Virus record (IMG/VR): IMGVR_UViG_3300048590_000360 | Coordinates: 1 to 64,000 of that record | DNA length: 64,000 bases | Direction: 5' to 3' (one strand) | Source: a virus | Part shown: positions 19,401-42,541 of the stretch, in pieces | Layout of the letters: each line of letters opens with the position of its first letter | Numbering within the stretch: position 1 is the stretch's first letter | Translations under genes and position numbers: made by a program | The notes under the pieces: model-generated | What the model was told of the DNA's origin: nothing | The model's input: the letters and a program-made list of their open reading frames with translations, nothing else | Database searches by the model: none

Positions 19401-20082
19401 TGTTATATGTGGCGTTGATTCTGTCATAGGAATCTGTTAGCGGTGGCGCGGATACTTTAGATATAGTAGAATATGCAGACCTTTTATTGTCCCAATCGAC
19501 GAATTGTGTCCTGAATTGAAATACATTACCTTTTAAGTTGTTGAATTTCTTTGACGAATCCGAATCATAGTTAAGTGATGGGGGTAATACCGGTTGTGGG
19601 ACAATATTGTTTATGTATCTTTCGGTAAGTAATGAGGGATACATCCCTGACTTGGCTCGTTGAATATTAATACATCTTGGATGCCCGTTCCCATCAGTGA
19701 AATATAATAGACCATTAAGAACAAAAGGTGTAACAATAAGGTAGTCAAGATTAAAGTTTAGAACTTTAGATTCAATGAGTATTGTAATGTCATTAAGCAC
19801 AACGTCATATTCAAATATTGAATGTTTGGCGTTTGAATTGTAAAGGAAGTAGTAAACTTTGTTGTTTATATCATCAAGGCATGAGCCGATAACCTTATTA
19901 GCTCCAGATGGTAGTACGGTATCAATTAATAGGTCGCCATTAACATGTTGGACTGTTCCAACAGCTTTGTCCTGATTACCTGAGTTTTCAATATTGACTG
20001 CGAACCTATAGTCACCTTGTTTTACGGTTCTATCATCTGAATCGGAGTCCATTCCTCCAAAGAATATCCTTTTCTCTAACAT
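16438..20082 (-). CDS. large virion structural protein (tail/baseplate/fibre-like), 1214 aa
   Basis: Long ORF. The ORF-track start 20115 is GTG inside a terminator hairpin. ATG 20082 (MLEKRIFFGG...) lies 4 nt after a TATCTTTG box. Confidence 0.75.
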   Translation of the reverse strand: MLEKRIFFGGMDSDSDDRTVKQGDYRFAVNIENSGNQDKAVGTVQHVNGDLLIDTVLPSGANKVIGSCLDDINNKVYYFLYNSNAKHSIFEYDVVLNDITILIESKVLNFNLDYLIVTPFVLNGLLYFTDGNGHPRCINIQRAKSGMYPSLLTERYINNIVPQPVLPPSLNYDSDSSKKFNNLKGNVFQFRTQFVDWDNKRSAYSTISKVSAPPLTDSYDRINATYNNYQNNVLNITFETGDSAIRKINVCVRYGNSGDFYLVDTINKDDSSTWVDGIAPIDFSTYTYPFYNDRTLTLLSQTEVNKPYDFVPLLAKEQCLLDGQRLGYFNITEGFDNIDLGSSFASIISLDDQQFNIEQGRIYGSGERISNIDQVSGDTPLYTKNTDSTTIDVIGGIPSGLNGQKISDLDIYFSGTFFENDLIDIQFKLEIKYLNIETPSAANVYKTKDITVKYTHIVTSSEETFPNLGLLISNIINKLNTDSTLLPKILTGSVFGTSSVISCQAVPFTSGYGIIIKTIINTSDPVTSIYPLNYTESIVTQVNVNNTSSRVRVSPSFKSGSTHPVGLVYYDYAGRYGKVQTNRSFMPYAPFPTEIGTIGRNFIRMELHHSPPEWATHYAPVYAGNNQTARFVWTRVGTVTAQANNRYKIFIGTLQQFNDAYDSRPLLSYTYTKGDKIRSVWFNPTSSTGQVYSSFYEYEILSFDESTSEITVAADETNTMKITIGNMVEIYTPKKVSENQLYYEIGNTYKIENGLHKGSLQNQTALQPAIIDIYDGDIWIRPRRYNYLAIGFTDPLDYLVEDFSQSDFYTSNVWSKGRGNNVDKLLRKIHRPVTVYWSELYIPETQIDGLSNFFPESTKTFNHAYGHIQKAYSQGERVVIFQENKVGFALVNKDVLFSASGGVVGDISSELTVISKMNYYGLEYGISTNPESFAQYGANIYFTDANRGAVLRMNFNSGIERIDSNHDAVQNSYLMSALFNKVFNDRVSSGRKFYVHGVYVSERKEYILSFEPIYKQIQITTDNSTRPEGVRPSQVNVSLSNAIKDIDGITITFSESKNRWTTSYSYDSEQLQNIPSTYISFWNGRLYKHGVGLPNTFRGQFTPSSITVVFNDNPTIIKFFKNILVESSEVWECPLIENQFGQSSSLIGEDFETFEGVHKASLLQDANTPNIDLPLINGDDIRCHSITVTLQSTTEGEQKLFAAAIRYEPSEMNT

Positions 20083-20086
20083 GAAA

Positions 20087-20094
20087 CAAAGATA
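20087..20094 (-). promoter_or_regulatory. -7 promoter box (rc TATCTTTG), 4 nt from ATG
   Basis: rc context TTTTTGTATCTTTGTTTCATG. Lies immediately downstream of terminator 20096..20122. Confidence 0.55.
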
Positions 20095-20095
20095 C

Positions 20096-20122
20096 AAAAA
20101 AAGGGTGGGAACCACCCCACCC
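20096..20122 (-). terminator. rho-independent terminator
   Basis: Stem gggtggg (20103-20109) / cccaccc (20116-20122). The minus-strand RNA is followed by U7. Confidence 0.7.
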
Positions 20123-20149
20123 TAATTTAAACCAAGGAAACCATAGAAA

Positions 20150-20368
20150 TTACACATAGGTACGTGTGGAGAAACACAAAAGTTTCGACGGATTGGAAAA
20201 ATCTTTGAATATTTTTTCTGCTTCAGTGTAGTTGTCTGCATAACAAGTGAATAATACCTGTTGAATTTTGAGATTGTTTTTGGCAGCGTATTCTTTACAT
20301 AGACTTAATTCAGATGCGTCTTTTACCTGTGTGCCAGACTTAATTAGGAAAGTAAATTTCTCAGCCAT
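20150..20368 (-). CDS. hypothetical protein (72 aa)
   Basis: The ORF-track TTG start 20383 was trimmed to ATG 20368 (MAEKFTFLIK...), 4 nt after a TATCTTTG box. Confidence 0.55.
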   Translation of the reverse strand: MAEKFTFLIKSGTQVKDASELSLCKEYAAKNNLKIQQVLFTCYADNYTEAEKIFKDFSNPSKLLCFSTRTYV

Positions 20369-20657
20369 GGAGCAAAGATACAAAGATTAATATTTGGCGA
20401 ACTTCTCTTTTTGTGAAGTGAATCTTTGATTCACCAGACTTGTCGGAAATTGTCATTGATCCGTTTTTGAAAGTGATATTCCCATTATCTAACGTCATGT
20501 GGTGTGTTTTTGTGGGTATTTCAGGAAAATGGTGAAGCATCTTTATTGCTGATTCAATTCCCATGGTTATGTCTTTAGGGTTTGGTTGTGGTATTTTTGC
20601 CCCTGTGCGCCATTTGTTGTAAGTCATCAATGTTAGTAAGGTTTCTTTCTTATTCAT
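20361..20657 (-). CDS. hypothetical protein
   Basis: 98-aa ORF with ATG start. Operon-like overlaps with both neighbours. Confidence 0.55.
   Translation of the reverse strand: MNKKETLLTLMTYNKWRTGAKIPQPNPKDITMGIESAIKMLHHFPEIPTKTHHMTLDNGNITFKNGSMTISDKSGESKIHFTKREVRQILIFVSLLHG
20373..20380 (-). promoter_or_regulatory. -7 promoter box (rc TATCTTTG), 4 nt from ATG
   Basis: rc context TTTGTATCTTTGCTCCATGG. Confidence 0.5.
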
Positions 20658-21267
20658 TATTTAGGTCAGTTAAGTTCATCCATGATATAATACCTGTATC
20701 AGATTTTCCCGTTTTAACATCGTCTAACGGATTCTTCTGTAGTCTCTGTAGTCTTGCTACTTCTTTTTTCTTTTTCTTGGCATATAGTGCTTCTAATTTC
20801 TTTTGCGCATCGGCTTTTTTTGCTAAGAATGTCTTTTGTGTTTGAATATTCCAATAGTACTGTTTGTAGGATTGCCATTCGGGTCTTGAATTGATATACC
20901 GGATAGCCCAATATGCCAATTCTTCAATCGAAATATTCAATTCAAATTGTAGTAATTTCTGAATCTGTTTAGCTACGTCAGGTTCAATCATAATCTCAAT
21001 CTTGTGAGTTCTTTTCTGGTTTATGCCTTGGTTCCATTTTTTCTGTGGACGGGGCATGAACATCCCTGTGAACTTTACTACTTTAGTGTAGTCAGTGTAT
21101 TCGTCCATTCCTTCAGGCAACCATTCGTAGTATGCTTTATTACTTTCGGGGAGTTGGGTATTGGTGAATTCTTCTAACATATCAGCACGTTTTCTCAGTG
21201 CGTCAACAACGTCCAACACATCATCCCTGAAAATAGGGACCTTAGACGGTTTTATTTTACGTCTCAT
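20650..21267 (-). CDS. hypothetical protein
   Basis: 205-aa ORF with ATG start and 4-nt overlaps on both sides. Confidence 0.65.
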   Translation of the reverse strand: MRRKIKPSKVPIFRDDVLDVVDALRKRADMLEEFTNTQLPESNKAYYEWLPEGMDEYTDYTKVVKFTGMFMPRPQKKWNQGINQKRTHKIEIMIEPDVAKQIQKLLQFELNISIEELAYWAIRYINSRPEWQSYKQYYWNIQTQKTFLAKKADAQKKLEALYAKKKKKEVARLQRLQKNPLDDVKTGKSDTGIISWMNLTDLNNE

Positions 21268-21455
21268 TTGGCGAAGTTATGGTTAATTATCTTCCGGATA
21301 TACGTAGTGAATGTTTCTTCAGTTATGTTTGACTTCACCATTAATGATATTATTTTGAAATTTTTCTGGATGAATTCCTTTGCACGGGAAGGATTTGTGA
21401 TAGTAATTTCCCTTGTTGCAAGTCTGATGGCTTCTTTGAATGTGATTGGTTCCAT
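21264..21455 (-). CDS. hypothetical protein
   Basis: 63-aa ORF with ATG start, coupled to the downstream gene. Confidence 0.45.
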   Translation of the reverse strand: MEPITFKEAIRLATREITITNPSRAKEFIQKNFKIISLMVKSNITEETFTTYIRKIINHNFAK

Positions 21456-21477
21456 AGTTTATTGATTTAGTTATTGA

Positions 21478-21744
21478 TTACGGTAATTTACTTTTTAAGG
21501 TTTCAGTTTTATAGACTAATTCATACGGTGTTGTTGCCATTGGTTTACCTAGTATTGAATCACAACCTAAAGGTACGAAGGTTAATTGGTATGCAGAATC
21601 CGGACAGCATTGGCATGGTGTGATTGTCTGGGATGTTATTGGCGCGTGGGTAACTGTACATTCTTCCGTTGTATGGCGCGTATTAATCCAAATATGGCCT
21701 AATACTATAACAATAAGGAATAAGACTGCTGAAGTAGTTTTCAT
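21478..21744 (-). CDS. small secreted or membrane Cys-containing protein
   Basis: 88 aa. N-terminal signal-like MKTTSAVLFLIVIVLGHIW. Confidence 0.5.
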   Translation of the reverse strand: MKTTSAVLFLIVIVLGHIWINTRHTTEECTVTHAPITSQTITPCQCCPDSAYQLTFVPLGCDSILGKPMATTPYELVYKTETLKSKLP

Positions 21745-21974
21745 GATAATGGTAAGTTAGGTAACGGCATCCAATGAGTCACTCTATAATCATCATCAAC
21801 GTAGGCATCCCCGTCAAGTCCATCGTATGACTGCCCCCACAACCAATCTGATATATGATTATCTGGGACGTAACACCTTGCCATGATACGGATCTTATTA
21901 TCCACCACAGCTAATACATTAGTATTACCTTTGGGAAGGGAATGTTCTACGGGAATCCATTGATTATTTATCAT
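21741..21974 (-). CDS. DUF551-like protein
   Basis: WIPVEHSLPKG ... VLAV ... THWMPLPNLP matches the DUF551 pattern (match by eye only). Confidence 0.55.
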   Translation of the reverse strand: MINNQWIPVEHSLPKGNTNVLAVVDNKIRIMARCYVPDNHISDWLWGQSYDGLDGDAYVDDDYRVTHWMPLPNLPLS

Positions 21975-21975
21975 T

Positions 21976-22263
21976 TCACTTCTGATTTACATTTGGCCTG
22001 CGCCCAACCACGGCCCCATCTTCTGGGGTGTAGAAGGTAGTCATCACCCATTCAGGGTTGTCGAAACCTACTTGTACCGGTGGACGTTCACTCCACCTAA
22101 TGGATGGGTCTTGCTGCTTCGCTGCGTAGTACTTCGTGAGTAGCTTAGAAGCCCTTAGTGTATTCGTGCCGCAGATTTCCGCTAACCGCTTTTGGCTTAA
22201 ATCCGGGCAGTCGGTGTGCAACCTCACCAGTTGCTTCGTTAGAATTATCGCTGATTCGCTCAT
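21976..22263 (-). CDS. hypothetical protein, possible HTH
   Basis: The ORF-track start 22302 is TTG, so I used ATG 22263 (MSESAIILTKQLV...). The segment SQKRLAEICGTNTLRASKLL is HTH-like. Confidence 0.45.
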   Translation of the reverse strand: MSESAIILTKQLVRLHTDCPDLSQKRLAEICGTNTLRASKLLTKYYAAKQQDPSIRWSERPPVQVGFDNPEWVMTTFYTPEDGAVVGRRPNVNQK

Positions 22264-22304
22264 TTTGATTGGTATTAAAAGGCCGCATCCCGTTATAAGC
22301 AATG

Positions 22305-22496
22305 TTAAAGGTGGTCAACCTCAAGTTTTTGCCAAGTTTTACCATCGGTAGTAAACTCATTCTTGCACAAATCATAAACTACCATTCCGACATCAGGATT
22401 AAAATGATTCTCAGTGTCAAACCAAGCTGTTAGGAATGGCAACTTTACTTTGGTTGTAATTAAGTATCTCATAATCAAAAACACTGCTGCCAACAT
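22305..22496 (-). CDS. hypothetical protein
   Basis: 63-aa ORF with ATG start. Confidence 0.45.
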   Translation of the reverse strand: MLAAVFLIMRYLITTKVKLPFLTAWFDTENHFNPDVGMVVYDLCKNEFTTDGKTWQKLEVDHL

Positions 22497-22547
22497 TCGT
22501 TTACCGCAAGTGGGGGTGACAGCGTTAAACCCACTTGCAGTTTTTCA

Positions 22548-22595
22548 ATTTAACTTTCGGTTCGGCAACTTCGCCAAGCTGCAAAACGTTTAGCC
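22548..22595. repeat. attC-like structured repeat (outlier copy)
   Basis: Ends atttAAC ... GTTTAGCC. rc reads GCATTGGCTAAACGTTTTGC..., homologous to the 50663 element end GCATTACGCCTAACGTTTTGC. The distal end shares AGTTAAATTGAAAAACT with the 26806-26822 and 49226-49240 regions. Confidence 0.4.
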
Positions 22596-22612
22596 AATGC
22601 CTCCGGCACGGT

Positions 22613-22849
22613 TCATTGGTTCACGTTCAACCCTATCTCTGCAAGGTTAAGCATCTTATCCATAGCTCGCAGGCTCATCAACTGCATCGCTGCACGGTGT
22701 TCTTTTATGGCCACGTATAGAGTGTACAGTACCTCCCTTTCCACTGATGCCGTTCCATCGGCTAACTCCTTGCGAATAGCGACGTGCCATTCATTGAAGC
22801 TCACCTGCTCCGGCGGGTGAACTGTGGACTGGATTTTTAGTTTGCTCAT
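22613..22849 (-). CDS. hypothetical protein
   Basis: 78-aa ORF, the first gene after a long intergenic region. TAACTTTG box 26 nt upstream. Confidence 0.55.
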   Translation of the reverse strand: MSKLKIQSTVHPPEQVSFNEWHVAIRKELADGTASVEREVLYTLYVAIKEHRAAMQLMSLRAMDKMLNLAEIGLNVNQ

Positions 22850-22875
22850 AAAATGGTTTTGGCAGTGATACGCAC

Positions 22876-22883
22876 CAAAGTTA
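22876..22883 (-). promoter_or_regulatory. -7 promoter box (rc TAACTTTG) with upstream TTTG
   Basis: rc context TTTTTTTTGAAACTTTTTGAAACCTTTATAACTTTG. A TTTG lies about 21 nt upstream of the TA, which fits the Bacteroidota -33/-7 layout. Confidence 0.5.
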
Positions 22884-23277
22884 TAAAGGTTTCAAAAAGT
22901 TTCAAAAAAAATTAAAAAAAGTTCTTTTTTGAAATATCTTTTGGCGCGGATGAATTCAGGAACCAATTTTTCCCTTCGTCCTTTCTATGTACATCCATAG
23001 TGAAAACCCGACAAAAAACTGTGGATATATCTCAAAAAACGGTTTCTATATACCGGAACCATAGTAAGACGCGGATACTTTAACCAAACACACATAAAGC
23101 ATTGGTTTAAACATAACTTATACATCATCACTTAAAGTAATACTCAAACCAATACAACCCTTCGTCCTCTCCCATAGCACCTTTCACTATCACCTTTCAA
23201 CGTCCCCTGTTCATCAGTTATCGTTTAACGGTTGTGTGTGTATTATTTGTATGTGTATCTTTCATAAGATAAGGCAC

Positions 23278-23305
23278 AAAAAAAAGGCTCCCCTTTCTGG
23301 GAACC
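23278..23305 (-). terminator. rho-independent terminator after radC-like gene
   Basis: Minus-strand RNA GGUUCCC AGAAAG GGGAGCC (one G-U pair) followed by U8. Confidence 0.65.
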
Positions 23306-23329
23306 TTGGCGCGGGGAATATGACGCGTG

Positions 23330-23776
23330 TTATAACACTCCGTGATCAGCGAATGAGTAATAAGCCTCTGCCGTTAATATACAATGGTCAATAACTTGCA
23401 CATCAAACAGATTTAGTGCATCTTTTATCTTTCTGGTTATTTGAATGTCCTGTTCCGACGGTTTCAAATTGCCAGATGGATGGTTATGCGCAATAATAAC
23501 GGCAGCGGCCAAGGAATCTAATGAGAATTTAGCAATTAGTTTGATGTCGACAACGGTTCCATAGCATCCTCCTTGTGAAATTTTAACATAACCGGTGACG
23601 TTGTTGGCGCGGTTTAAAGTAATTAAAAAGAAACTTTCATACACGTCTATATCACAGCCCCAAAACTGGCGCATAAATTCGACACTATCCAAAGACCTGG
23701 TAATTTTTACTGAATTCATGTCCGTGGTTACTTTTTGAAGTTTGAATTCTGAAATGGTTTTTTTAAATGGTTTCAT
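23330..23776 (-). CDS. radC: RadC-like JAB/MPN domain protein
   Basis: 148 aa with the signature AAVIIAHNHPSGNLKPSEQDIQITRKI (the HNHPSG...PS..D motif of the RadC/JAMM family). Confidence 0.85.
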   Translation of the reverse strand: MKPFKKTISEFKLQKVTTDMNSVKITRSLDSVEFMRQFWGCDIDVYESFFLITLNRANNVTGYVKISQGGCYGTVVDIKLIAKFSLDSLAAAVIIAHNHPSGNLKPSEQDIQITRKIKDALNLFDVQVIDHCILTAEAYYSFADHGVL

Positions 23777-23886
23777 GGTTTCTAATTTTTAAAGTTTGTT
23801 TATTAAAACTGCGATTCCTAAGAAAAGGAGCCCAAAGCATGTAAGAATAGCGCAGAGCACCAGGAATGAAATTAATCGGCGCATGG

Positions 23887-24537
23887 CTAACAAACAAATT
23901 GATTTGATGCACCAGACATTCCAACATTTTTAGCAAATGGCGCATTATTCCATTTATCAAAATCAAACTGGGATATTCTTTCGGCATCTGCAATAGATAC
24001 GTGAATATTAAATCTATTGCAGCTCAAGTCCGGATGAAAGAGCTCATATACATTCCCATCTTCGGATTTAGCGAATACATAACATTTACCGGTAGCATAT
24101 AGCAGTTTTGCGTCTTCGATAGATATTTTTAATGTATTTGCCAGTGTTTCAGGGGAAAATTCTTCTCCTTCAGGGATTTCAACGTGGTTTTCGTGGATTG
24201 AATAAACTCCTAATTTTTTAGCAGCCTTTAACCGTATGGCGCGTGCTTTGTTATTCCTTTTTATTTCCCTTCTATTTTTTAAGGACTCCTTCTTCCGGAC
24301 CGCAAGTTCTTTTAATTTTTCCTTAAGCATAGCAGGAGTAACGGTAATCTCTATCATTTCGTGCCGGATGGAACTATTATATTTGGTTCCCCTACCTTGG
24401 TACCATTGCCTGTCATCGAAGAAGAAAATACTCCCGTCAGGCATTAAAATGCGTTGGGTACCTTTCATTTTTAGCGTGTAAGTTTTTTTAAAGTTCTCTT
24501 CAACAAATTGTCTGGTTATTTCTGTTCTATTTTTCAT
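23887..24537 (-). CDS. hypothetical protein
   Basis: 216-aa ORF with ATG start in the conserved context AGAAACCATGAAA. Confidence 0.65.
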   Translation of the reverse strand: MKNRTEITRQFVEENFKKTYTLKMKGTQRILMPDGSIFFFDDRQWYQGRGTKYNSSIRHEMIEITVTPAMLKEKLKELAVRKKESLKNRREIKRNNKARAIRLKAAKKLGVYSIHENHVEIPEGEEFSPETLANTLKISIEDAKLLYATGKCYVFAKSEDGNVYELFHPDLSCNRFNIHVSIADAERISQFDFDKWNNAPFAKNVGMSGASNQFVC

Positions 24538-24859
24538 GGTTTCTTGGTTTTTAAAGGTTAATTAAATTTATAAACATAACATTTCATCTCCATCGCCAGC
24601 ATCCAGCGGACACCGTAAATCTTTTTTGGTTTCATGGTTTCTATTTTTTAGTTTTGGTTTATAGTACATATACGCCATCATCTCATAAATAGTTTCAAAA
24701 AAAATAAAAAAAACTTAAAAAACTTTCAGGTATCTAAAACTCAAGCGCAAAAACTTGGCGCGTGAACAACAAATAACATTACACACCAGGTAAAAAACAA
24801 AACAGTAAGACAAAACACATATAAATATATCTTTCCTTCAGTTCCTTTCACCAGGTCAT

Positions 24860-24940
24860 TTCCTTCGGTGTCCTTCCTTCGGTGTCCTTCCTTCGGTGTC
24901 CTTCCTTCGGTGTCCTTCCTTCGGTGTCCTTCCTTCGGTG
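24860..24940. repeat. 14-bp tandem repeat, 5.8 copies (ttccttcggtgtcc), iteron-like
   Basis: Exact units at 24860, 24874, 24888, 24902 and 24916, plus a partial unit at 24930. Degenerate copies lie just upstream (24831-24859). Confidence 0.9.
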
Positions 24941-25948
24941 CATCAGCGCATTAGCTAATATTACAACAAAGTAGAACGAGTCCGCGGAACGTAGATCGTA
25001 ACGGGGTTAAACCTTTTGTTGTTATCTTTGTACCTGGCACCGGCTAAATGAATCCTTCAACGTGCTGACACTAAAGTACTCATAACATGCATTATGTTAA
25101 ATAGGGATTTTTGTAACCGATTAAAAACTAACGTGTTATATTATTGTCTATACAAGAGTTGTTTTATAACGGGTGAAAAGAAAATATAAAACATTGATTT
25201 TCAAGGATGAACAAAGCAGTGTTATTTTGTCGTGAAAATTCGTTAAAAGGTGGTGTAAAACGGGGAAAGGTGCGGACGGCTGCAATACGTTAAATGTACT
25301 GCGTTATCGTTGCGCGGTTGGTGTCGGGATATAGGTTGAATGGTTTGGCTGTGTTAAAACCGATTTAAATCATATTTTAACGTATCCTTGCTGCGGTGTA
25401 TCTTCTCGGAATGTACCCCATGCCCCTCTGAATCCCGTTTCCTTTTTCGCACATCCCCCCTTCAATGCCATATAACCCCTTGACTGGACCGTTACGTATG
25501 AGATTCAATGGGGTTATTGAGGGATACTGCAGGATGGTGTTTGAAGGAATTGGTATTGGTGAAAGGGGCTGTGTGGAATTGTGATTTGCTTGATGGGTAT
25601 GTGGGGTGTCACTGTATTATTGAATTATTTGTTTAAGTGACATTGCATAACTATGTAATTTTCTGGGGTGTTATGTGTTATTACTTAAAGTAATTGTTTA
25701 ATAGTTGTGTGTGTTGATTGGTTGTTTGGTGGTAGGCTTCCAACGGTTTGTTGGTGTTTTATTGGGGGCTGATTGACACTAAGTATGTGATTTTGAGGTA
25801 TGGTTATTTTTTGTGATTTGGTGATAGGATTCCAATAATGACGTGGTATTGAATATTTTTTTTGTTTAATATATACTATGGTGAGTTCTGCTACAAGCTA
25901 CGACACATTTCATTAGTGGGTTCATTCGTAAGCTGTTGTTGATTATAA

Positions 25949-25990
25949 TAGATATTTCAGTTTTTGTACAACGATTTTGTAAATGTCCAT
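25949..25990 (-). pseudogene. truncated copy of the first 14 codons of the tyrosine recombinase gene
   Basis: rc ATGGACATTTACAAAATCGTTGTACAAAAACTGAAATATCTA (MDIYKIVVQKLKYL), then it diverges and stops after one more codon. Confidence 0.7.
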
Positions 25991-26035
25991 GCTGTAACCC
26001 CTTATTTTATTGGTATTGTTGTTATATGGTAGTTA
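25949..26035. repeat. 87-bp exact direct repeat, copy 1 (junction plus recombinase 5' end)
   Basis: Identical to 48213..48299. Ends in ggtaGTTA, followed by a different cassette. Confidence 0.9.
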
Positions 26036-26044
26036 TCGGCAACC

Positions 26045-26407
26045 CTAAGCGGACACCACAAACAATTCAGTTCCATATAGAGAATAGAAAATATTTTGTA
26101 GTTCGTGGACATATTGTAAGTCTGTTAAAACTAATTGACAAACAAAATTGCCTTGAATAAATCTAAATTTATCATCAGCAGTTGATATACCTACATTGTT
26201 GTCTTTGTTGTAAAATTTATCTTGTATTTTGCTGTTTGTAAATCCAAAATCGGTGAGCCATTTATCAGTTAGTTTTACAGGATAAAATGGTTTGTCTAAT
26301 TCATTTTGTAAGTACATTGCGAATAAAGAGCCATCCAACTTTATAATATCTTCGTTAAAAGAAACATAGTTTCCTACTCTTATTTGTGTTGCGTTTAAAT
26401 ATTTCAT
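26045..26407 (-). CDS. hypothetical cassette protein
   Basis: 120-aa ORF with ATG start. The stop lies 7 nt from the GTTATCG junction core. Confidence 0.6.
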   Translation of the reverse strand: MKYLNATQIRVGNYVSFNEDIIKLDGSLFAMYLQNELDKPFYPVKLTDKWLTDFGFTNSKIQDKFYNKDNNVGISTADDKFRFIQGNFVCQLVLTDLQYVHELQNIFYSLYGTELFVVSA

Positions 26408-26454
26408 TTTTTATTTGTTTAAATTGTTAATAATCATTCCGAAAGAAGGGCAGC

Positions 26455-26541
26455 CGATAACAGCGTATAAAGTAAACCGCCAATCCCCACCCACGTAGCC
26501 AACGCAATTGTCGGCTTCCCTTATACGCAAAAGCGTTAGCG
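26455..26541. repeat. attC-like structured repeat
   Basis: Ends CGATAAC-AGC ... GCAAAAGC-GTTAGCG. Stem gcgtataa (26463-26470) / ttatacgc (26521-26528). Confidence 0.55.
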
Positions 26542-26550
26542 GAAATGATT

Positions 26551-26793
26551 TTACCCACCCATATCTACAATAGTAGGTTTAATCGGTTCACCGCCAACCG
26601 AAGCGAATAGAGATAGTTTTTTACTTGGTTTACCATCTTCAACCATCCAAGCAATTGAACCGCAACAAGGCGTTGAACCTGTCCAGTTTTTTAATTGAGT
26701 TTTACATACGTTACATTCCACCCAAAAATCACTATCCGCTAACACATTATTTGCGTCAGTGGGGGTGTTGTTTTTCAAATCGTCGTTTTGCAT
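26551..26793 (-). CDS. small zinc-ribbon-like cassette protein
   Basis: 80 aa with CNVC ... CCGS. The first ~17 codons lie inside repeat 26737..26870. Confidence 0.55.
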   Translation of the reverse strand: MQNDDLKNNTPTDANNVLADSDFWVECNVCKTQLKNWTGSTPCCGSIAWMVEDGKPSKKLSLFASVGGEPIKPTIVDMGG

Positions 26794-26870
26794 ATTATTA
26801 AAATTTAGTTTTTCAAATTAACTGTGGTGGTGTAATGCCCCACCGAACGCAAATAATCGGCACGTTAGCA
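26737..26870. repeat. attC-like structured repeat, long subfamily (134 bp, downstream ATG in loop)
   Basis: Ends CGCTAAC ... GTTAGCA. Arms attatttgcgt (26746-26756) / acgcaaataat (26847-26857) and gtgggg (26759-26764) / ccccac (26838-26843). The stop of 26865..27107 lies inside gTTAgca. Confidence 0.55.
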
Positions 26871-27107
26871 GTCAGTTTGCCCCAAATCACCGTAAGGCTT
26901 TTGAAGTGCTTTACTACTAATAGCTATTTCTCCGTTAGGAAGTTCATTGCAATGGCAAACCGAACTGCTAACAGGCGGTTGGCGCAATACTTGTTTCATC
27001 GCTTCGATTAAAGTGTGGTACATTTCAGCATCGCTTACTTTGTCATTCTCGCTTTTCGGGTATCTATTGTCTATTACCCATTGTGCTATTTCTTGTATCG
27101 TTTTCAT
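26865..27107 (-). CDS. hypothetical cassette protein
   Basis: 80-aa ORF with ATG start. Confidence 0.55.
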   Translation of the reverse strand: MKTIQEIAQWVIDNRYPKSENDKVSDAEMYHTLIEAMKQVLRQPPVSSSVCHCNELPNGEIAISSKALQKPYGDLGQTDC

Positions 27108-27171
27108 ATCAAAATTTTGTTTTAATTATTCGTACTGCGCCAACCGCCAAACCGTTATAACCAATAGGGGT

Positions 27172-27369
27172 TCAGTCCTTCGATTTAACATTTCGGTTGG
27201 CGGTTTTCTTATTTTTTTGCACACGCTCTTTGGTTTTTTCAAAACCATTAGATTTTGATTCTCGTTCCAAAATATCCTGTGCCAAGTTTTTAAAATCCGT
27301 GTTCTCATCAATGGCTCTCTTGCTCAATGATTTTACACATTCATCTGATAAATCAAGTAGTTTTTTCAT
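27172..27369 (-). CDS. ribbon-helix-helix-like small protein
   Basis: MKKLLDLSDECVKSLSKRAIDENTDFKNLAQDILERE shows a beta-alpha-alpha pattern. It is the last gene of a three-gene unit. Confidence 0.5.
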   Translation of the reverse strand: MKKLLDLSDECVKSLSKRAIDENTDFKNLAQDILERESKSNGFEKTKERVQKNKKTANRNVKSKD

Positions 27370-27805
27370 ATCCTTTATTTAGTATTTTTCTACAACTTTC
27401 CGCGTCCTTTCCGTTTGGTTGGTGTTTTAGTTTCCACAAAGAACTACTTGCGTAATGTTTTGCCAAACTTTCGCACTTTTCAAATGGAACAATAGTATAG
27501 ATATACGAAGTAATCTCTATACTGCTTTCGGTATTACCGCCAAACATAGCTTCGCTTTCTTCAACACAACAAGATAAAACTGGTTCACTTTCATTATCTT
27601 CAAATTTTATCACTGAAAGTTCTTTAATTACATCACTTATTGTAGTAGATTTTAATTGTACATTCTTTTCTTTTTTATCAAACCAATGAATGTAATTACG
27701 ATGTAGTGTAGTAAAATCACGTTTTTTCAAAAGCTCAATAGCTTCATTCCTACTTTTAGTAGTTGATTTTAGGTAATGCTGATATACTATTTCTTCTTGT
27801 GTCAT
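27353..27805 (-). CDS. hypothetical cassette protein
   Basis: 150-aa ORF that overlaps the downstream RHH-like gene by 17 nt. Confidence 0.6.
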   Translation of the reverse strand: MTQEEIVYQHYLKSTTKSRNEAIELLKKRDFTTLHRNYIHWFDKKEKNVQLKSTTISDVIKELSVIKFEDNESEPVLSCCVEESEAMFGGNTESSIEITSYIYTIVPFEKCESLAKHYASSSLWKLKHQPNGKDAESCRKILNKGYEKTT

Positions 27806-27816
27806 AATCGTTATTT

Positions 27817-28107
27817 TTAAAGGGTTTTAAAGTAGTTAAGTAATTGATTAAAATACTTCCCGTAATACTCAATAGCATAGCCATTCATATAAGCAGGTTT
27901 TACACTTTCTCTTTGTGAGGCAACCACATTAATTCCTAAAGTTTTTGCTGCAAAATCAACAAAGTTTTCAAGTTTGGTGTCGAGCCATTTAATATCACAA
28001 TCCCTAAATTCTCCTTTATTTAATTGGTTTATTATTTTAGTAATCGGGTCTATTAAAGAAACTTCGATAATAAACTGGTCAATTGCTGTGTTGTTTGTTG
28101 CTTTCAT
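27817..28107 (-). CDS. hypothetical cassette protein
   Basis: 96-aa ORF. TATATTTG box 24 nt upstream. Confidence 0.6.
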   Translation of the reverse strand: MKATNNTAIDQFIIEVSLIDPITKIINQLNKGEFRDCDIKWLDTKLENFVDFAAKTLGINVVASQRESVKPAYMNGYAIEYYGKYFNQLLNYFKTL

Positions 28108-28131
28108 TTTGTTTCGTTTTTAATTCTGATA

Positions 28132-28139
28132 CAAATATA
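28132..28139 (-). promoter_or_regulatory. -7 promoter box (rc TATATTTG)
   Basis: Overlaps the first unit of the 3 x 9-bp repeat at 28135..28161. Confidence 0.5.
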
Positions 28140-28161
28140 TACCATATATACGATATATACA
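28135..28161. repeat. 3 x 9-bp tandem repeat (ATATATAC-N), operator-like
   Basis: atatatac at 28135, 28144 and 28153, with an exact 9-bp period. Confidence 0.8.
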
Positions 28162-28291
28162 AGTAAAAGTTTCAAATATTTTAAAACTAACTGATTTTCA
28201 AAGAGAATAATTTTTAAATCCCTCCCTAAAAAAATAAGAAAACTGCTGTTTCTGCTCCGAATTTGGCTTTGTGCTAAACAATCCCTACTGG

Positions 28292-28346
28292 TTATAACAG
28301 CACATTGGCGGCATTAAAACGACCGCCAATCTGCATCACGTTGTAT
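28292..28346. repeat. attC-like structured repeat (55 bp)
   Basis: Ends TTATAAC-AGC ... GCATCAC-GTTGTAT. Stem attggcgg (28304-28311) / ccgccaat (28323-28330). Confidence 0.55.
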
Positions 28347-28494
28347 GCAATTATGGCGCAAAAGACCAGGTAAATAGCCAAATATTTTTAGTAAATAGTG
28401 AGTTTAGGATTAGAAAATGACTTAATTTTTGTCAAGCCTTGCAAAGTAGATTTGCTGAAAAGTATTTTCAAAGCGAATTACGCTAAAAGGCTTG

Positions 28495-28502
28495 CAAAGG
28501 TA
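28495..28502 (-). promoter_or_regulatory. -7 promoter box (rc TACCTTTG) with TTTG 20 nt upstream, inside an ORF-free cassette
   Basis: rc TTTGACTTTGTCTTTTTTTTCTAATACCTTTG. No ORF of 20 aa or more lies downstream before repeat 28292..28346. Confidence 0.4.
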
Positions 28503-28688
28503 TTAGAAAAAAAAGACAAAGTCAAATTTTTATTCTAATACGATCATAAACTGCTATTTATTAAAGAGATGGCTTGGTTTGTAAAAGACTAATCTTATCC
28601 CTTTGGGGCATAAGACCAATATTTTTCAATCATTTAACTAGGTTTTTTGCGGCATAACTGGGACTGTTTTCATAACTTAGCCGAGTTA

Positions 28689-28772
28689 GAATAACAGCAC
28701 ACAACAACAGGTTTGTTCAATGCCTGCCGCCGGCGCAACACAGGCACTGCACAAACCTGCTATACGTTAGGT
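28689..28772. repeat. attC-like structured repeat
   Basis: Ends GAATAAC-AGC ... GCTATAC-GTTAGGT. Stem caggtttgt (28708-28716) / acaaacctg (28751-28759) plus an inner tgcctg/caggca pair. Confidence 0.6.
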
Positions 28773-28813
28773 GCAATAAAAAATAAATTTCCCACCGCAC
28801 CAAACTAACAACA

Positions 28814-29080
28814 TTAATCCTTCTTTTTAGAGTATTGAAAAACCAATTGGTTGGCAATGTGGTTAAACTCTAAATTGTTTTTGTCATCGCCTGTAATCTT
28901 ATTGAAAAGATGCGTAGGCATAATGTTTGCCAACGCGTGGAAAAAATGCGTAAGGTTATCGCCTTCTTGTAATTCTTGTTGGTCAATGTGAAAATCACTT
29001 TCGCTATCTTCATCAAAGAGTTCCGCAATTTTTCCACTTAACATTGCCGCATAATGTAAATGTTTTTCGGTCTGTGCCAT
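28814..29080 (-). CDS. hypothetical cassette protein
   Basis: 88-aa ORF with ATG start. Confidence 0.55.
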   Translation of the reverse strand: MAQTEKHLHYAAMLSGKIAELFDEDSESDFHIDQQELQEGDNLTHFFHALANIMPTHLFNKITGDDKNNLEFNHIANQLVFQYSKKKD

Positions 29081-29128
29081 AATTGAAATTTGTTTTAAAA
29101 GCCCACGCTAAATTTATTTTTTACAGAC

Positions 29129-29227
29129 ACCTAACAGCAGGTAGGCAAAATGCCGCTATGAGCCTGAGTGCTTTGATATTTACATTTGTGGTAAGCGTCA
29201 CTATCGCCTACCTGCAAACCGTTAGCG
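29129..29227. repeat. attC-like structured repeat
   Basis: Ends ACCTAAC-AGC ... GCAAAC-C-GTTAGCG. Perfect 10-bp stem gcaggtaggc (29137-29146) / gcctacctgc (29206-29215). Confidence 0.6.
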
Positions 29228-29234
29228 GAAAATG

Positions 29235-29570
29235 CTACATCCACTCATCCAACGGAACATTTTTAGTTTTAAATTTTTTGCCTTGAACTGTTAGCACGTA
29301 GTCAAAATTTGCTCTTTGCCAATTACTTTGGTGTATCAACCCCATTCTAACCAATCGAAACAAAATAGACGAATTAAATGTGAACTCACCTTTTGCAGAA
29401 CAACAAGTAACTGTTGATGTACAAGATTGTGTTATCAATTGCCATCCATTTTGAAGACAAAAAACAATCATATTTTGTTTTGGAGTTAGTTTTAATTTAA
29501 CCGCATCATCCGCTAACACGTGTTTTGCGTCAGGCGGGGTTTCGTGGTTAATTGCAGTTTGTGTTTTCAT
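29235..29570 (-). CDS. hypothetical cassette protein
   Basis: 111-aa ORF. The N-terminal ...PPDAKHVLADD is encoded inside repeat 29511..29643. Confidence 0.55.
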   Translation of the reverse strand: MKTQTAINHETPPDAKHVLADDAVKLKLTPKQNMIVFCLQNGWQLITQSCTSTVTCCSAKGEFTFNSSILFRLVRMGLIHQSNWQRANFDYVLTVQGKKFKTKNVPLDEWM

Positions 29571-29643
29571 AATTTAATTTTGTTTAAGTTGAAAGTTTGC
29601 GGTTTTCAAACCCGCCCGAACGCAAAGCACCTTAACGTTGTAG
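29511..29643. repeat. attC-like structured repeat, long subfamily (133 bp, downstream ATG in loop)
   Basis: Ends CGCTAAC ... AAC-GTTGTAG. Arms gtgttttgcg (29520-29529) / cgcaaagcac (29621-29630) and ggcggg (29533-29538) / cccgcc (29611-29616). Confidence 0.5.
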
Positions 29644-29655
29644 GCAATTGCCTTG

Positions 29656-29889
29656 CTATAAAAGCGTATTGCCACATTTTCCGCAAAAGTCTTGAACTTT
29701 ACTGTTTACCCTGTTATTTTCGCAATCGCAAGGCAACTGTTCGCTTCGCCCTACAACAGGGGCTATATGTAATACTTGGATCATTGCTTCGTAAATAACT
29801 TCAAGTTGATTTGAGTTAAATTCTTGCTCAACGCTTGTAAAGTTTCCAAATGTATTTAATGCTTCTAATAATATTTTTTCTTTATCCAT
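29656..29889 (-). CDS. small cassette protein with C-terminal CxC...CxxC
   Basis: 77 aa ending ...LPCDCENNRVNSKVQDFCGKCGNTLL. Confidence 0.5.
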   Translation of the reverse strand: MDKEKILLEALNTFGNFTSVEQEFNSNQLEVIYEAMIQVLHIAPVVGRSEQLPCDCENNRVNSKVQDFCGKCGNTLL

Positions 29890-29940
29890 TTCTATTAAGT
29901 TTTATCGTTAATAAATCGTACTACATATAGCCCCAAACCG

Positions 29941-30204
29941 TTAGCTGCAAGCTGGCAGACTAATCCACGCAATAACGCTTCCGTTTGTATGTTGTGGTCG
30001 CATATCATTAACCCAAACAATTACCCGATTATCTTCAAGCCTTAAATGACATACATCCATTTTACCATAGTCGGTTAATATTAGCACTGGTTTACCAAAT
30101 TCGGGTAATTGTTTTTCTACTGGAATCCAGCCAGCAGCTAACACAGTATTGCCGACAATTGCGGGTTCTGTGGTAGGTTCAACTTTTTGTTTTTTATTGT
30201 TCAT
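29941..30204 (-). CDS. DUF551-like cassette protein
   Basis: GWIPVEKQLPEFGKPVLILTD ... VIAWISLP resembles DUF551 (match by eye only). The stop lies inside gTTAgct. Confidence 0.5.
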   Translation of the reverse strand: MNNKKQKVEPTTEPAIVGNTVLAAGWIPVEKQLPEFGKPVLILTDYGKMDVCHLRLEDNRVIVWVNDMRPQHTNGSVIAWISLPACS

Positions 30205-30269
30205 TTGTGCAAATTTTGAAGTTTTTTAATTCTAATTCCGCAACTGCGGCAATACTCGGAACGTTAGCA
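30136..30269. repeat. attC-like structured repeat, long subfamily (134 bp, downstream ATG in loop)
   Basis: Ends AGCTAAC ... GTTAGCA. Arms agtattgccg (30145-30154) / cggcaatact (30247-30256). Confidence 0.5.
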
Positions 30270-30275
30270 CCAATA

Positions 30276-30509
30276 CTACGAGTGTGCTGCAAAAACCTGA
30301 TTATCCCTTAATCGTATTTGTTCTCTTATCTTTTCGGCTAATTGTTCTACTTCGTCAGAATAAGAACATATAACAGTTCCGTCCTCTTTTTTTAAGGCTA
30401 TAGGCATTGCGTTTGCGTATAAGTCAAATAGTGCCTTAAATAGTTCTTTTCTGTGGCTATCATTCAAAATAGCTTCTCTTTGTTTTTGGTAATATTTTTG
30501 GTCTTTCAT
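30276..30509 (-). CDS. hypothetical cassette protein
   Basis: 77-aa ORF. The conserved leader AGTACGGATTATTAAC lies upstream. Confidence 0.5.
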   Translation of the reverse strand: MKDQKYYQKQREAILNDSHRKELFKALFDLYANAMPIALKKEDGTVICSYSDEVEQLAEKIREQIRLRDNQVFAAHS

Positions 30510-30543
30510 TCTATTTATATTTTGTTGTTAATAATCCGTACTG

Positions 30544-30608
30544 GTGCTAACAGCAAATAAGCAAAACTCCGCTATCGCTACGCTTCGCCTATTTGCAAAC
30601 CGTTAGCG
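30544..30608. repeat. attC-like structured repeat (65 bp)
   Basis: Ends GTGCTAAC-AGC ... GCAAAC-C-GTTAGCG. Stem gcaaataagc (30553-30562) / gcctatttgc (30587-30596), with one A-C (G-T on the minus strand). The stop of 30603..30920 lies inside gTTAgcg. Confidence 0.6.
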
Positions 30609-30920
30609 GTCATTGCCGCCAAGCCCAAGTCCCTTAATTATCCTTTCCATAAAGTCGCCACTTTTTTTCACATCGCAAGTTTCGTTAAACCATTTTTCGT
30701 CCTCTTCATTTTCAGGAAAAACAATGTTGCACCTCATAGCAGTTTCCCTTAGAAGCGGCAACGAACCGCTAACATCGGGTTGGGCTAAATTTTTATTGGC
30801 TACGAGTTGCGCGTATTCGGAAAGGATAATTGATACTTTCCCTTTCGTGTAGAACTCTTCCCCTTCATCATTAGTATAGTCTGGTGTCCACATTTTCAAA
30901 ACTTCCATTTCTCTTGTCAT
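30603..30920 (-). CDS. hypothetical cassette protein
   Basis: 105-aa ORF with ATG start. Confidence 0.55.
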   Translation of the reverse strand: MTREMEVLKMWTPDYTNDEGEEFYTKGKVSIILSEYAQLVANKNLAQPDVSGSLPLLRETAMRCNIVFPENEEDEKWFNETCDVKKSGDFMERIIKGLGLGGNDR

Positions 30921-31022
30921 GCTATTTATATTTAGTCGTTAATAATCCGCCAATAAAAACTTCGCCAACCCGTCCACCGTTATAGCACATTAAAACGATG
31001 CTATAACAGCGCATAAGAGAAG

Positions 31023-31286
31023 TTAAGGCTTAGATAGTGCTTCGAGCAAAGATTCTGCATGAAGAACAGCCAACTCACTAATACCACTTGGTGAGAATGT
31101 CATACTTCCTCCTTGTGTCATTCCTCCGTTACAATTTGCTAATAATCCTTGCATCGCTAATCCTGCAAAATACTCCTTCTTAGTTAAACCATATTGGGTA
31201 AAACTTCCATTAGGATCAAGCATAGAATCTATGTATTCTTTACCTTTAATTCTAGCATTCGTTTGCTGTTCTGTTTCCTTTTCCAT
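31023..31286 (-). CDS. hypothetical cassette protein
   Basis: 87-aa ORF. The stop lies inside gTTAagg. Confidence 0.55.
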   Translation of the reverse strand: MEKETEQQTNARIKGKEYIDSMLDPNGSFTQYGLTKKEYFAGLAMQGLLANCNGGMTQGGSMTFSPSGISELAVLHAESLLEALSKP

Positions 31287-31397
31287 AATCTAATTTTTTT
31301 AATTTGTTTCGCCTTAACTTCTCCTATGCGCCTACCGTTAGCGGCAAGCGTAGGACACCACTCCGAATAAACAGCATCCTACACAAACCGAAAAAGG

Positions 31398-35989: not shown

Positions 35990-38080
35990 TCACCTTATTC
36001 TTCGTTTAGTGAATAATGGTTTGGGTTTTGTTCCTTCCTTCATTGATTGTGAAATCTTTTTTCTGGTAAAGTCTTTGGCACCAATATAGGCTAACATAGA
36101 TGCTACCGTTAAGTCATACTTAGTCCAATCTCCAGGTTCAAATTTTAACCAATCATGTAGTAAATCTTCCAAACTACAAGTTCCGTTAAGACTGCGTACT
36201 ATATCTACTTCAGGGATACCTAATTTAGTTAATTGTGTTTCTATAGTTATTTCTCCAATAAAATCATGGATATACCCATGTAGTCTATCCATCAATGTCT
36301 CTCTGACAAACTCTCCTGCTGTACTAATCCCTTCAACGGGTTTTGATGCTTTGTCTCTATTGAGTATTGATTGTTTTGTTTTTTTTATAAATCCCCCGTG
36401 TCCGGATTCCCGAAGGTAATTAATAAGTCCTGGCTTTTGGTTTTCTATGAGTAAGTCCCAAGAATAGAACATTGCTACTTTCAACGCATCATCCCAAAAA
36501 AGTTTCGGGGTTTCTCTCCTGTAACAGTATGAGAACACGAAACAGTTACTTTTGAATATATCCATTGGTTCATAAGCTCTAAACCCTACAATCGCAGCGT
36601 TAGACCTTCTTGTATCTACAGTGGTTTTATGGTCGAATGGGTCAACACCTATACATCCTGATTCTGTAAATTTAGGTTTCCTTCCTGTCATATCCTGTGT
36701 GAAACAGTTTCTGTCTTGTGGTAATGGCATCCACCCCACTTTGAATAATCCTTCAGAATCGTCCACAAATCTTACTACAGTTCTTTCGTCATTTTCAAAT
36801 AGAAAATTTCCTACTCTATAAGGAACCGATACAACTGAGGCATTGTGTTCCAACTGTTCGTATATCTTATCAGCAGGAAACCCCTCACCTTTACTGTCAA
36901 GGATAAATGCTTCCATGACGTTTGTAGGGTATTTTCTCTTTTCCTCATTGAGTTTTGTACCTGTTAGTTTAGTTCTTTTGCTTTTAAGATAGTCCAAGGC
37001 ACCAATGGTTTCCGTTTCTCCTTCATTGTTAGTGAATGGTTTTAATGGTGTTTCAATTACTGAATATCCATATTCATCAATGAATCCACTTAGTCCGTGT
37101 TGCGCTGGTTTGAAGTATCTGTATAATCCTGAAATAGTCCTTCCATCGTCTTTCCTATTGTTTGCGTCTGAATCCCTCCATAGATTTGCAACAGGTTCAC
37201 CCCCTGCCCTGTTTGTTTCTTCTACAGTAGATGAAAGGTATGCTTTACCTACAATGGTTTTTCCAACTTCTAAGCATGGTTTCAAAATGTACCACCGTGA
37301 TTCTGGGTTTGCATTTGATGGTTTTCCTATCTCATCCTGATAGTTCCTGAATTGTCGTGTTCCATCGTATGCTTCTTCTTTAGATGATTCATAATCAATG
37401 AAACTATTAAGTACGTTTTTGTAGGTTTTCTTTTCGCCTTTTGTGCTTCTGCGTGCGGGTTCTTCAAACTTTAATGCTTTTTGTGGTGAAGTCTGCCCTG
37501 AGTCAATAGGTTTCCAAAAGTCAGGTAATTTCTTCCAACTTTTTACCATCTTCAGGAAGATACGTAAAGCATCAATGTCTGTCTTAGATTGAATCCCTGA
37601 TTGCTCATCCTTCACTAAGGACGTTGCTTCATATAGGATACATGAACCTTTATATGTTTTTCCTGAACGTCTATCGGAAATGAATAATAATCCGTAACAG
37701 TTTTTATCTTTAACACATAAGTCCCAAACGTAAAAGAAGTCTCTGTCAGATTCGCGCCATTCCGGAAGGTCTTTGCCAATGTACCAATATGTGAGGTAAA
37801 AATAATGTAACCCTGTTATGTATTCTATCTTCCCATTATTATAAAAGAAGATACCGTTTTTTCTTCTGTCAAGTTCCCTAATGTATAACTGTTCTTGTTC
37901 TTGTACTGATAAGGCATTCCAACGGAGATGGTCTTTCGGTGCTTTCCACTTGTGATTGTACTTTTGGTTAGAATTAAGGATTTGAGAAACTTCTGGTGGT
38001 TCTGGTAGGTGTATTTTGTATTTATACCCTGTCCCATCGTCAATCTCCCTGATTTTTTTAAAATCCTTAACCGATTCCAT
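35990..38080 (-). CDS. terL: terminase large subunit
   Basis: 696 aa. Walker A-like SDRRSGKT, Walker B-like NYQDEIG, and nuclease-domain motif CIGVDPFDH. Confidence 0.85.
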   Translation of the reverse strand: MESVKDFKKIREIDDGTGYKYKIHLPEPPEVSQILNSNQKYNHKWKAPKDHLRWNALSVQEQEQLYIRELDRRKNGIFFYNNGKIEYITGLHYFYLTYWYIGKDLPEWRESDRDFFYVWDLCVKDKNCYGLLFISDRRSGKTYKGSCILYEATSLVKDEQSGIQSKTDIDALRIFLKMVKSWKKLPDFWKPIDSGQTSPQKALKFEEPARRSTKGEKKTYKNVLNSFIDYESSKEEAYDGTRQFRNYQDEIGKPSNANPESRWYILKPCLEVGKTIVGKAYLSSTVEETNRAGGEPVANLWRDSDANNRKDDGRTISGLYRYFKPAQHGLSGFIDEYGYSVIETPLKPFTNNEGETETIGALDYLKSKRTKLTGTKLNEEKRKYPTNVMEAFILDSKGEGFPADKIYEQLEHNASVVSVPYRVGNFLFENDERTVVRFVDDSEGLFKVGWMPLPQDRNCFTQDMTGRKPKFTESGCIGVDPFDHKTTVDTRRSNAAIVGFRAYEPMDIFKSNCFVFSYCYRRETPKLFWDDALKVAMFYSWDLLIENQKPGLINYLRESGHGGFIKKTKQSILNRDKASKPVEGISTAGEFVRETLMDRLHGYIHDFIGEITIETQLTKLGIPEVDIVRSLNGTCSLEDLLHDWLKFEPGDWTKYDLTVASMLAYIGAKDFTRKKISQSMKEGTKPKPLFTKRRIR

Positions 38081-38463
38081 TAGACGTATTTTTCAAGGAA
38101 TGTCCCTGCATCGTTGTTTTGATTCCCTAATTGTGCTGAAGTATCTGGTGTGAGTTCCTTTTCAAGTAACTTCATTGTTTCAATCATCTTAGGCATCTTA
38201 TCAATGAGAATCATCACTCTGTCGAATGCTTTATCTGAACTTTTAGTTAAGGATGTATATGACAATAAATCAACTTCTTGTTCTTCCCCTTCATTGGATA
38301 TTGTTACAGGGTTATTAAGTAGTTCTCCTAATGCGTCTAATTGTTTTCTGAGTCCGTTGTATAACGAACCCATTGAACTTATCGCTGATAGGTTTCTAAT
38401 GTGTAGAATCAGGATGTCAATATATTCCTGATCTGAACATTTTGGTGGCCGTTTAATGTTCAT
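38080..38463 (-). CDS. hypothetical protein (small terminase subunit by position only)
   Basis: 127-aa ORF whose stop overlaps the terL ATG. Confidence 0.35.
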   Translation of the reverse strand: MNIKRPPKCSDQEYIDILILHIRNLSAISSMGSLYNGLRKQLDALGELLNNPVTISNEGEEQEVDLLSYTSLTKSSDKAFDRVMILIDKMPKMIETMKLLEKELTPDTSAQLGNQNNDAGTFLEKYV

Positions 38464-38767
38464 CTTCTGTAATGATTACACCATAAGCGTCTATCTGCCG
38501 GATTAGTTTAAAATCTTTGGTCCCGTCACCTAAGTCCAATGCAATATTGTATGTGTTGTTTTTGTTGTACGCCAATATTTCACCGTCATTAACTTGTCTG
38601 GTGTATTGTCCGTACCCTTCACCGGCACTGAGTACTTTTCCCACACTGGGATATATTGTTTCCTCTGCTGTTTCAGGGATAATAATGCCTGAACGTGTTT
38701 TTCTTTCGTTTACTACAGGGTCTATCAGAATGTAGTCGTTAAGTGCTTTGAATGATTTGATTCTCAT
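38453..38767 (-). CDS. GroES-like co-chaperonin
   Basis: 104 aa. KALNDYILIDPVVNERKTRSGIIIPETAEE...GKVLSAGEG parallels the GroES pattern (PL-DRVLV...KT-GGI-LP...G-V-AVG-G). Confidence 0.65.
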   Translation of the reverse strand: MRIKSFKALNDYILIDPVVNERKTRSGIIIPETAEETIYPSVGKVLSAGEGYGQYTRQVNDGEILAYNKNNTYNIALDLGDGTKDFKLIRQIDAYGVIITEDEH

Positions 38768-42455: not shown

Positions 42456-42476
42456 TTAAATTCAATTTAAGTATCG

Positions 42477-42484
42477 CAAATGTA
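42477..42484 (-). promoter_or_regulatory. -7 promoter box (rc TACATTTG)
   Basis: 21 nt upstream of ATG 42455 and directly after terminator 42486..42523. Confidence 0.45.
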
Positions 42485-42485
42485 T

Positions 42486-42523: not shown

Positions 42524-42541
42524 TTTATGTTAGATTTCAGC

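Follow-up and report, generated by a model that had tools for sequence, protein, structure and literature searches.

Why should a crAss-like phage genome carry two arrays of small mobile gene cassettes that both start at the same 87-bp docking site, when only one of the two docking sites still has a recombinase gene next to it? The locus lies within a 64,000-nt stretch of phage DNA (hereafter the window), in which positions 25949-26035 are identical to positions 48213-48299 over 87/87 bases, with no extension by even a single base on either side. An exact 87-mer repeat cannot arise by chance in 64 kb. A sequence-only reading had proposed that identity stops at the core of an attI-like half-site joined to different cassettes by site-specific insertion, and that copy 1 is the remnant of a second platform whose recombinase gene was deleted. 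The observation is confirmed, with all coordinates as given in that reading, and the interpretation is supported, although the deletion origin is its least secure step. The elements of the repeat and its surroundings are as follows:

25949-26035: copy 1 of the repeat, an orphan attI-like site plus the first 14 recombinase codons, heading array 1
48213-48299: copy 2 of the repeat, the 5' end of the intact recombinase gene, the attI-like site and the GTTA core, heading array 2
47463-48254, minus strand: a 263-aa tyrosine recombinase, Xer/IntI-like, the only complete copy in the window
48255-48299: the attI-like site of the intact platform, 41 nt (48255-48295) plus GTTA (48296-48299), reading TAAC↓TACCATATAACAACAATACCAATAAAAT on the minus strand (↓, the junction)
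25991-26035: the same attI-like site without a recombinase gene
25943-25990, minus strand: a truncated reading frame of 14 recombinase codons, one Leu codon (TTA) and then TAA

The first 14 codons (MDIYKIVVQKLKYL) occupy 48213-48254. From the core, copy 2 continues GGTGC into a 58-aa cassette ORF (48309-48485), and copy 1 continues TCGGC into a 120-aa cassette ORF (26045-26407).

Assembly artefact is excluded as far as is possible without reads. Exact protein look-ups recovered independent contigs of the same phage from two other samples: contigs L029 (JGI sample 3300048591, equal to window positions 25455-31130) and L028 (JGI sample 3300048836, equal to 19681-26979) span copy 1 with both flanks, while L027 (3300048591, equal to 37463-51079) and L122 (3300048836, equal to 42048-54926) span copy 2 with both flanks, and all are 100% identical over the 87 bp. 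Neighboring contigs of sample 3300048591 overlap by exactly 127 nt, suggesting, by inference, assembly with a k-mer longer than the repeat, so that single k-mers would span it. Even a wrongly resolved repeat would leave a truncated copy, because the left flank of copy 1 departs from the recombinase gene at codon 15, whichever array is attached.

The window is part of a phage genome with almost all genes on the minus strand, encoding a terminase large subunit (35990-38080), a portal (60758-63160), virion proteins, and a 1225-aa protein that carries the crAss muzzle C-terminal domain. It also encodes a RadC-like JAB-domain protein (23330-23776) about 2.2 kb beyond copy 1, and a 2862-aa ORF (4286-12874) with no PHROG family, which near its 5' end holds a 90-nt imperfect tandem duplication (12667-12855) at 80% identity. 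Rfam and tRNA scans of the window found nothing. The recombinase contains PF00589 and PF13495 domains, and its motifs GLRVSE, KGRKDR, HLLRHS, GHSN and IYTHV align with those of the XerC-like recombinase 4a8e (E 4e-37). Residues R129, K154, H213, R216, H239 and Y248 are invariant in 12 relatives; their identification as the catalytic residues is our own assignment. The best profile match is archaeal XerA (NF040815, 169 bits), which is below the family cut-off of 220; the scores against XerC (134 against 335) and XerD (133 against 330) are also below their cut-offs. Length and domain layout are those of XerA and XerC/XerD recombinases, but the genomic context is a cassette array, not a dif site (although no search for a dif site was made). 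The integron integrase models were likewise not satisfied (TIGR02249, 150 bits against a cut-off of 265; NF011946, 97 bits against 435), and the additional domain inserted in the catalytic domain of IntI, essential for attC recombination (PMC8138268), is absent: the alignment to VchIntIA (2a3v) splits, with query residues 179-206 facing chain residues 185-260, so that about 48 residues are missing.

To the right of each repeat copy lies a chain of units, in which the R' box (GTTnnnnnn) that opens an ORF unit is the reverse complement of the R'' box (nnnnnnAAC) that closes it:

26032 to about 31800, minus strand: array 1, about 12 cassettes with attC-like hairpins between them
48296 to about 51650, minus strand: array 2, about 8 cassettes in the window and 9 in sample 3300048836
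26032-26461, minus strand: the first ORF unit of array 1 (120-aa ORF), bounded by GTTATCGGC and GCCGATAAC
50953-50960: AACCGTTA, the site of a natural one-cassette insertion/deletion between samples

Thus GTTATCGGC pairs with GCCGATAAC at 26453-26461, GTTAGGTGC pairs with GCACCTAAC at 48512-48520, and the same rule links every later cassette. Between two units lies an imperfect palindrome of 47-190 nt or more. Folded as single strands, these palindromes give an R box of 5-7 bp, an asymmetric internal loop (1-2 nt on one side, 5-6 nt on the other), an L stem of 10-13 bp with small bulges, and a variable loop, whereas the two 96-nt attI regions do not fold (z about 0). With polarity-specific criteria, the window holds 17 such hairpins in one polarity, 16 of them inside the arrays, against 4 in the other polarity and 1.65 per strand expected from shuffles. 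All cassette ORFs are on the same strand as the recombinase gene and read towards it, in the window and in relatives. None of the cassette proteins has a Pfam family (one gives a weak DUF551 hit), and the two arrays share no cassette.

An ‘empty’ unit at 30980-31009 (GTTATAGCA, 11 nt, TGCTATAAC) has no ORF between R' and R'', and is conserved in an unrelated phage contig (L002, about 7960-7995). The 87-aa ORF 31023-31286 lies inside the loop of a hairpin (31010-31338), between L'' and L', instead of between R' and R''. Three homologous cassette proteins (26551-26793, 29235-29570, 29941-30204) carry the R'' box inside their coding sequence (motif V-L-A near the N-terminus), so that the hairpin overlaps the start of the gene. 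A conserved motif, GATTATTAAC on the minus strand, lies about 20-25 nt upstream of many cassette start codons, next to the R'' box (26425-26436, 30524-30536, 30935-30947, 51209-51221), and could be a promoter, a translation signal or a protein-binding element. Within array 2, a 209-nt duplication at 91% identity (49264-49472 and 51243-51451) covers one gene of a two-gene cassette, starting at GTTATGCTC and ending at the start codon of the duplicated gene (plus strand).

Why does identity end at GTTA? Four independent comparisons place the crossover there. First, L030, a 512-nt contig from an unrelated ENA sample, carries the 120-aa cassette at 96% identity in a different array context; homology is limited to window positions 26032-26462, and on the left it starts at the G of GTTA, preceded by a hairpin arm rather than by the site. 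Second, L122 is 100% identical to the window over 12.9 kb except for 316 extra nt at 50956/57, flanked by AACCGTTA on both sides. On the plus strand this insert reads G↓TTACCGCC, a 69-aa ORF on the minus strand, GGCGGTAAC, a hairpin, then G↓TTATAAAA, a natural gain or loss of one cassette showing that an ORF unit travels with the hairpin to its right, which is 5' of the ORF in the sense direction. Contigs of sample 3300048591 break exactly here, so both forms probably coexist in that sample. Third, relatives (L004-L007, L010, L040, L043 and L048-L054), including phage and Bacteroidota sequences, keep a core TAAC↓TAnnATATA upstream of the recombinase gene, and most keep an ACCAATAAAAT box 40-100 nt upstream of the ATG, with unrelated sequence on the cassette side; L005 and L006 diverge at the AAC next to this core. 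Fourth, the cultured Polaribacter phages Freya_1, Freya_6 and Freya_10 are 99.8-100% identical from the recombinase gene onwards, but become unrelated about 66 nt upstream of the ATG, at ...ACAAC↓, ...CCAAC↓ and ...CTAAC↓ next to ACCCCTATAACAACAATAAG. The sharp right end of the repeat is therefore a recombination junction, as the sequence-only reading had proposed. A model in which the attC lies 3' of the ORF, as in canonical integrons, was rejected because the first ORF unit abuts the site with no hairpin between them, and because the L122 indel carries the hairpin on the other side. The single-crossover model does not predict one observation: in L030 (positions 1-35, compared with window 26462-26534) the same ORF unit carries an unrelated hairpin on its R'' side. 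Together with a contig break (31004) that falls inside the R'' box of the empty unit, this suggests that exchange can also occur at R'', or that hairpins are swapped by homologous recombination between conserved hairpin families.

At the family level, arrays of 10-25 hairpins lie upstream of the recombinase gene in L002-L007, and no second copy of the site lies within 10 kb of the recombinase gene in L002-L013. In a Flavobacterium metagenome-assembled genome contig (L047), an attI-like core (TAACTATTATATA, 1616-1630) lies 186 nt downstream of the recombinase stop codon, with a second core in the usual place upstream. Among the 1.48 Mb of sequence first examined, the window is the only record with two exact copies of the site. 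An exact search for a 26-mer of the site in IMG/VR and in the JGI metagenome collection, which do not hold this phage, found nothing.

How did copy 1 arise? Two features lie beyond its left edge:

24540-25948: an ORF-free 1.4 kb, G/T-rich, that follows copy 1 in the direction of transcription
25913-25927, minus strand: a weak 15/16-nt match to 47426-47441, the start-codon region of the gene downstream of the recombinase, possibly a relic of a once complete platform

The ORF-free stretch contains a 14-nt tandem repeat (TCCTTCCTTCGGTG, 24846-24954) whose unit number differs between samples (L028 has two fewer units than the window, and contig L031 has one more), and which could be an origin with iterons or part of a non-coding RNA. 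In a tblastn search only residues 1-14 of the recombinase were found at copy 1, with no other recombinase remnant in the window. The 15/16-nt match, which lies 16-22 nt beyond the two stop codons, has P of about 0.003 in a restricted, post hoc shuffle test (80 x 80 nt) but is not significant in a wider one, and we treat it as a lead only. Direct comparison with close relatives was limited: the 236-aa protein and the terminase gave no relatives in IMG/VR, homologs of the 216-aa protein next to copy 1 lie in unrelated phages, and the closest recombinase homolog (76% identity) is also on another backbone, so that in the collections searched no genome with the same backbone was found.

Parallel cases are nevertheless available. 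A pattern scan of IMG/VR for the site gave 117 stretches, of which sixteen have a full recombinase gene right behind the motif and two are informative exceptions. Contig 3300042862_000334 (61.5 kb, on a backbone unrelated to the window) has a complete platform (L175) and, 24.7 kb away on the same strand, a second site (L170), also preceded by hairpins. The second site is followed by recombinase codons 1-45 (84% identical at the DNA level) fused to the last ~6 codons (KINLPL*), and homology resumes in the gene downstream (score 46, reached by 0 of 2000 shuffles); that is a second platform whose recombinase gene suffered an internal deletion. A further contig, L232, keeps codons 1-104 and the last 8 codons next to an attI-like site, with an HNH-type endonuclease gene (9837-11129) in place of the middle of the recombinase gene; Freya phages carry an HNH endonuclease gene directly after the integrase gene (L001, 4969-5592). 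As the retained stubs are 14, 45 and 104 codons long, the left edge of the repeat looks like an arbitrary deletion end-point, not a functional boundary.

The explanation we favor, with reasonable though not high confidence, is that this phage carries an integron-like gene-capture system comprising one short tyrosine recombinase, a double-stranded attI-like docking site in the 41 nt upstream of the recombinase ATG, and arrays of cassettes, each made of a small ORF and a folding attC-like hairpin. The recombinase most likely binds the double-stranded site and the folded hairpins and exchanges strands at G↓TT, inserting circular cassettes at the site and excising cassettes or moving them between hairpins; sequence to the right of GTTA was placed there by insertion of different cassettes, and sequence to the left is the fixed half of the site. 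Copy 1 is an orphan docking site that most likely descends from a second copy of the platform that lost its recombinase gene by deletion, an origin that is inferred in this genome. Because both copies are identical, and integron integrases can generally act in trans, the single remaining recombinase probably serves both sites. Exchange between the two direct copies would excise the 22-kb interval that holds the terminase gene, and such products would be defective. A simple old remnant does not explain the 100% identity of the 87 bp, given only 84% in the parallel case; either the event was recent, or the short remaining homology was homogenized, for instance by branch migration from an attI x attI exchange.

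Of the alternatives, the one that survives best, though we consider it unlikely, is that copy 1 is a dead relic, with array 1 a frozen integrase-less array that no longer receives cassettes. Consistent with this, the same first cassette sits at copy 1 in every contig that covers it, and the only demonstrated indel is in array 2. However, the site is intact to the base and is the same sequence that the recombinase must recognize at copy 2, and contigs of sample 3300048591 also break inside array 1, with a 127-nt overlap at 31004-31130, which suggests polymorphism there. Somewhat less probable still is that there was never a complete second recombinase gene, and that a short patch (site plus 42 nt), or a patch plus cassettes that were later replaced, was copied to 25.9 kb by illegitimate recombination, or that attI x attC exchange between two genome copies was followed by a length-restoring deletion. 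The perfect identity of the 87 bp, the lack of a detectable recombinase remnant, the absence of shared cassettes, and slight similarity at the left boundary (TGATTATAA against TGAATAATT, in a 112-nt, 91% match) are in keeping with this view, while the two phage contigs in which orphan or decayed platforms arose from complete recombinase genes, and the weak 15/16 match just past copy 1, speak against it. A chimeric join or collapsed repeat is very unlikely, despite contig breaks at three places in or near the arrays in sample 3300048591, since both junction pairs are reproduced in independent assemblies from two samples and the swapped pairing would place the terminase gene on a 22-kb circle. 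Equally improbable is that the copies are attL and attR of a 22-kb integrated element, or the ends of a mobile segment: they are direct repeats with a recombinase gene just inside one end, but the interval holds the terminase large subunit and virion structural genes while the portal and muzzle genes lie outside it, so that neither part is a complete element, and the right edge of the repeat is a cassette junction, not a target-site boundary.

The closest published precedent is Shewanella prophage M16-3 (PMC9892861), in which a complete integron and an integrase-less array each start with the same attI sequence, and phage structural genes flank the second array. M16-3, a cryptic prophage of a gammaproteobacterium, has a canonical IntI (95% identical to that of S. 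oneidensis), whereas the 263-aa recombinase described here lacks the IntI insertion (26.6% identity to the M16-3 integrase), the host lineage is Bacteroidota, the backbone is crAss-like, and the cassette ORFs point towards the site. As in canonical integrons (class 1; Vibrio chromosomal integrons with IntIA), the recombinase gene is adjacent to a primary site, cassettes join at G↓TT, imperfect-palindrome sites have R''/L''/L'/R' boxes, the first bases of a cassette are complementary to its own R'' box, and a cassette moves as an ORF plus one attC (with L030 as one exception). In contrast to canonical integrons, whose cassette ORFs read away from attI and are expressed from a promoter (Pc) in the attI/intI region, the attC here is 5' of the ORF and transcription runs towards attI and the recombinase gene, and only 41 nt separate the ATG from the crossover. 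Because the recombinase lacks the IntI insertion and the cassette orientation is the mirror image of the canonical one, we have not classified the system as an integron. Array 1, with 11-12 hairpins, also fits the description of a CALIN (a cluster of attC sites lacking an integron integrase; PMC9892861), the nearest recombinase gene, which ends at 47463, being about 15.7 kb away, but it retains a complete primary site and a 14-codon stub of the recombinase gene. CALINs have been reported in virulent phages such as Polaribacter phage P12002L (PMC9892861), which has no integrase gene at all and gave only scattered hairpin hits with our criteria.

Literature searches found no description of this recombinase family as a cassette system. 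The family is large, with 5,299 protein clusters at E <= 1e-40, and also occurs in genomes of Bacteroidota isolates such as Flavobacterium urumqiense and Mesonia aquimarina; sources name it XerD or a lysogeny integrase, the latter being how the gene of the Freya phages was read (PMC8776804). It is possible, though we advance this only tentatively, that the repeat belongs to an undescribed class of integron-like gene-capture systems carried by Bacteroidota phages, including crAss-like phages and cultured Polaribacter phages, that would combine a short Xer-like recombinase without the IntI domain, attC hairpins with a fixed asymmetric bulge, cassettes that face the docking site, and genomes in which one recombinase serves several docking sites in trans. 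In this reading, orphan docking sites left by repeated loss of duplicate recombinase genes are kept because they still capture cassettes.

Two copies of one docking site joined to different cassettes place the crossover within the four bases GTTA, and show that at most 83 bp to its left are common to both copies. If copy 1 is active, a phage can run several cassette arrays from a single recombinase gene. The pattern of a platform duplicate followed by loss of the recombinase gene, found in another, unrelated phage contig (L170/L175), with a decayed recombinase gene next to an attI-like site in a third (L232), offers a concrete route by which integrase-less arrays arise.
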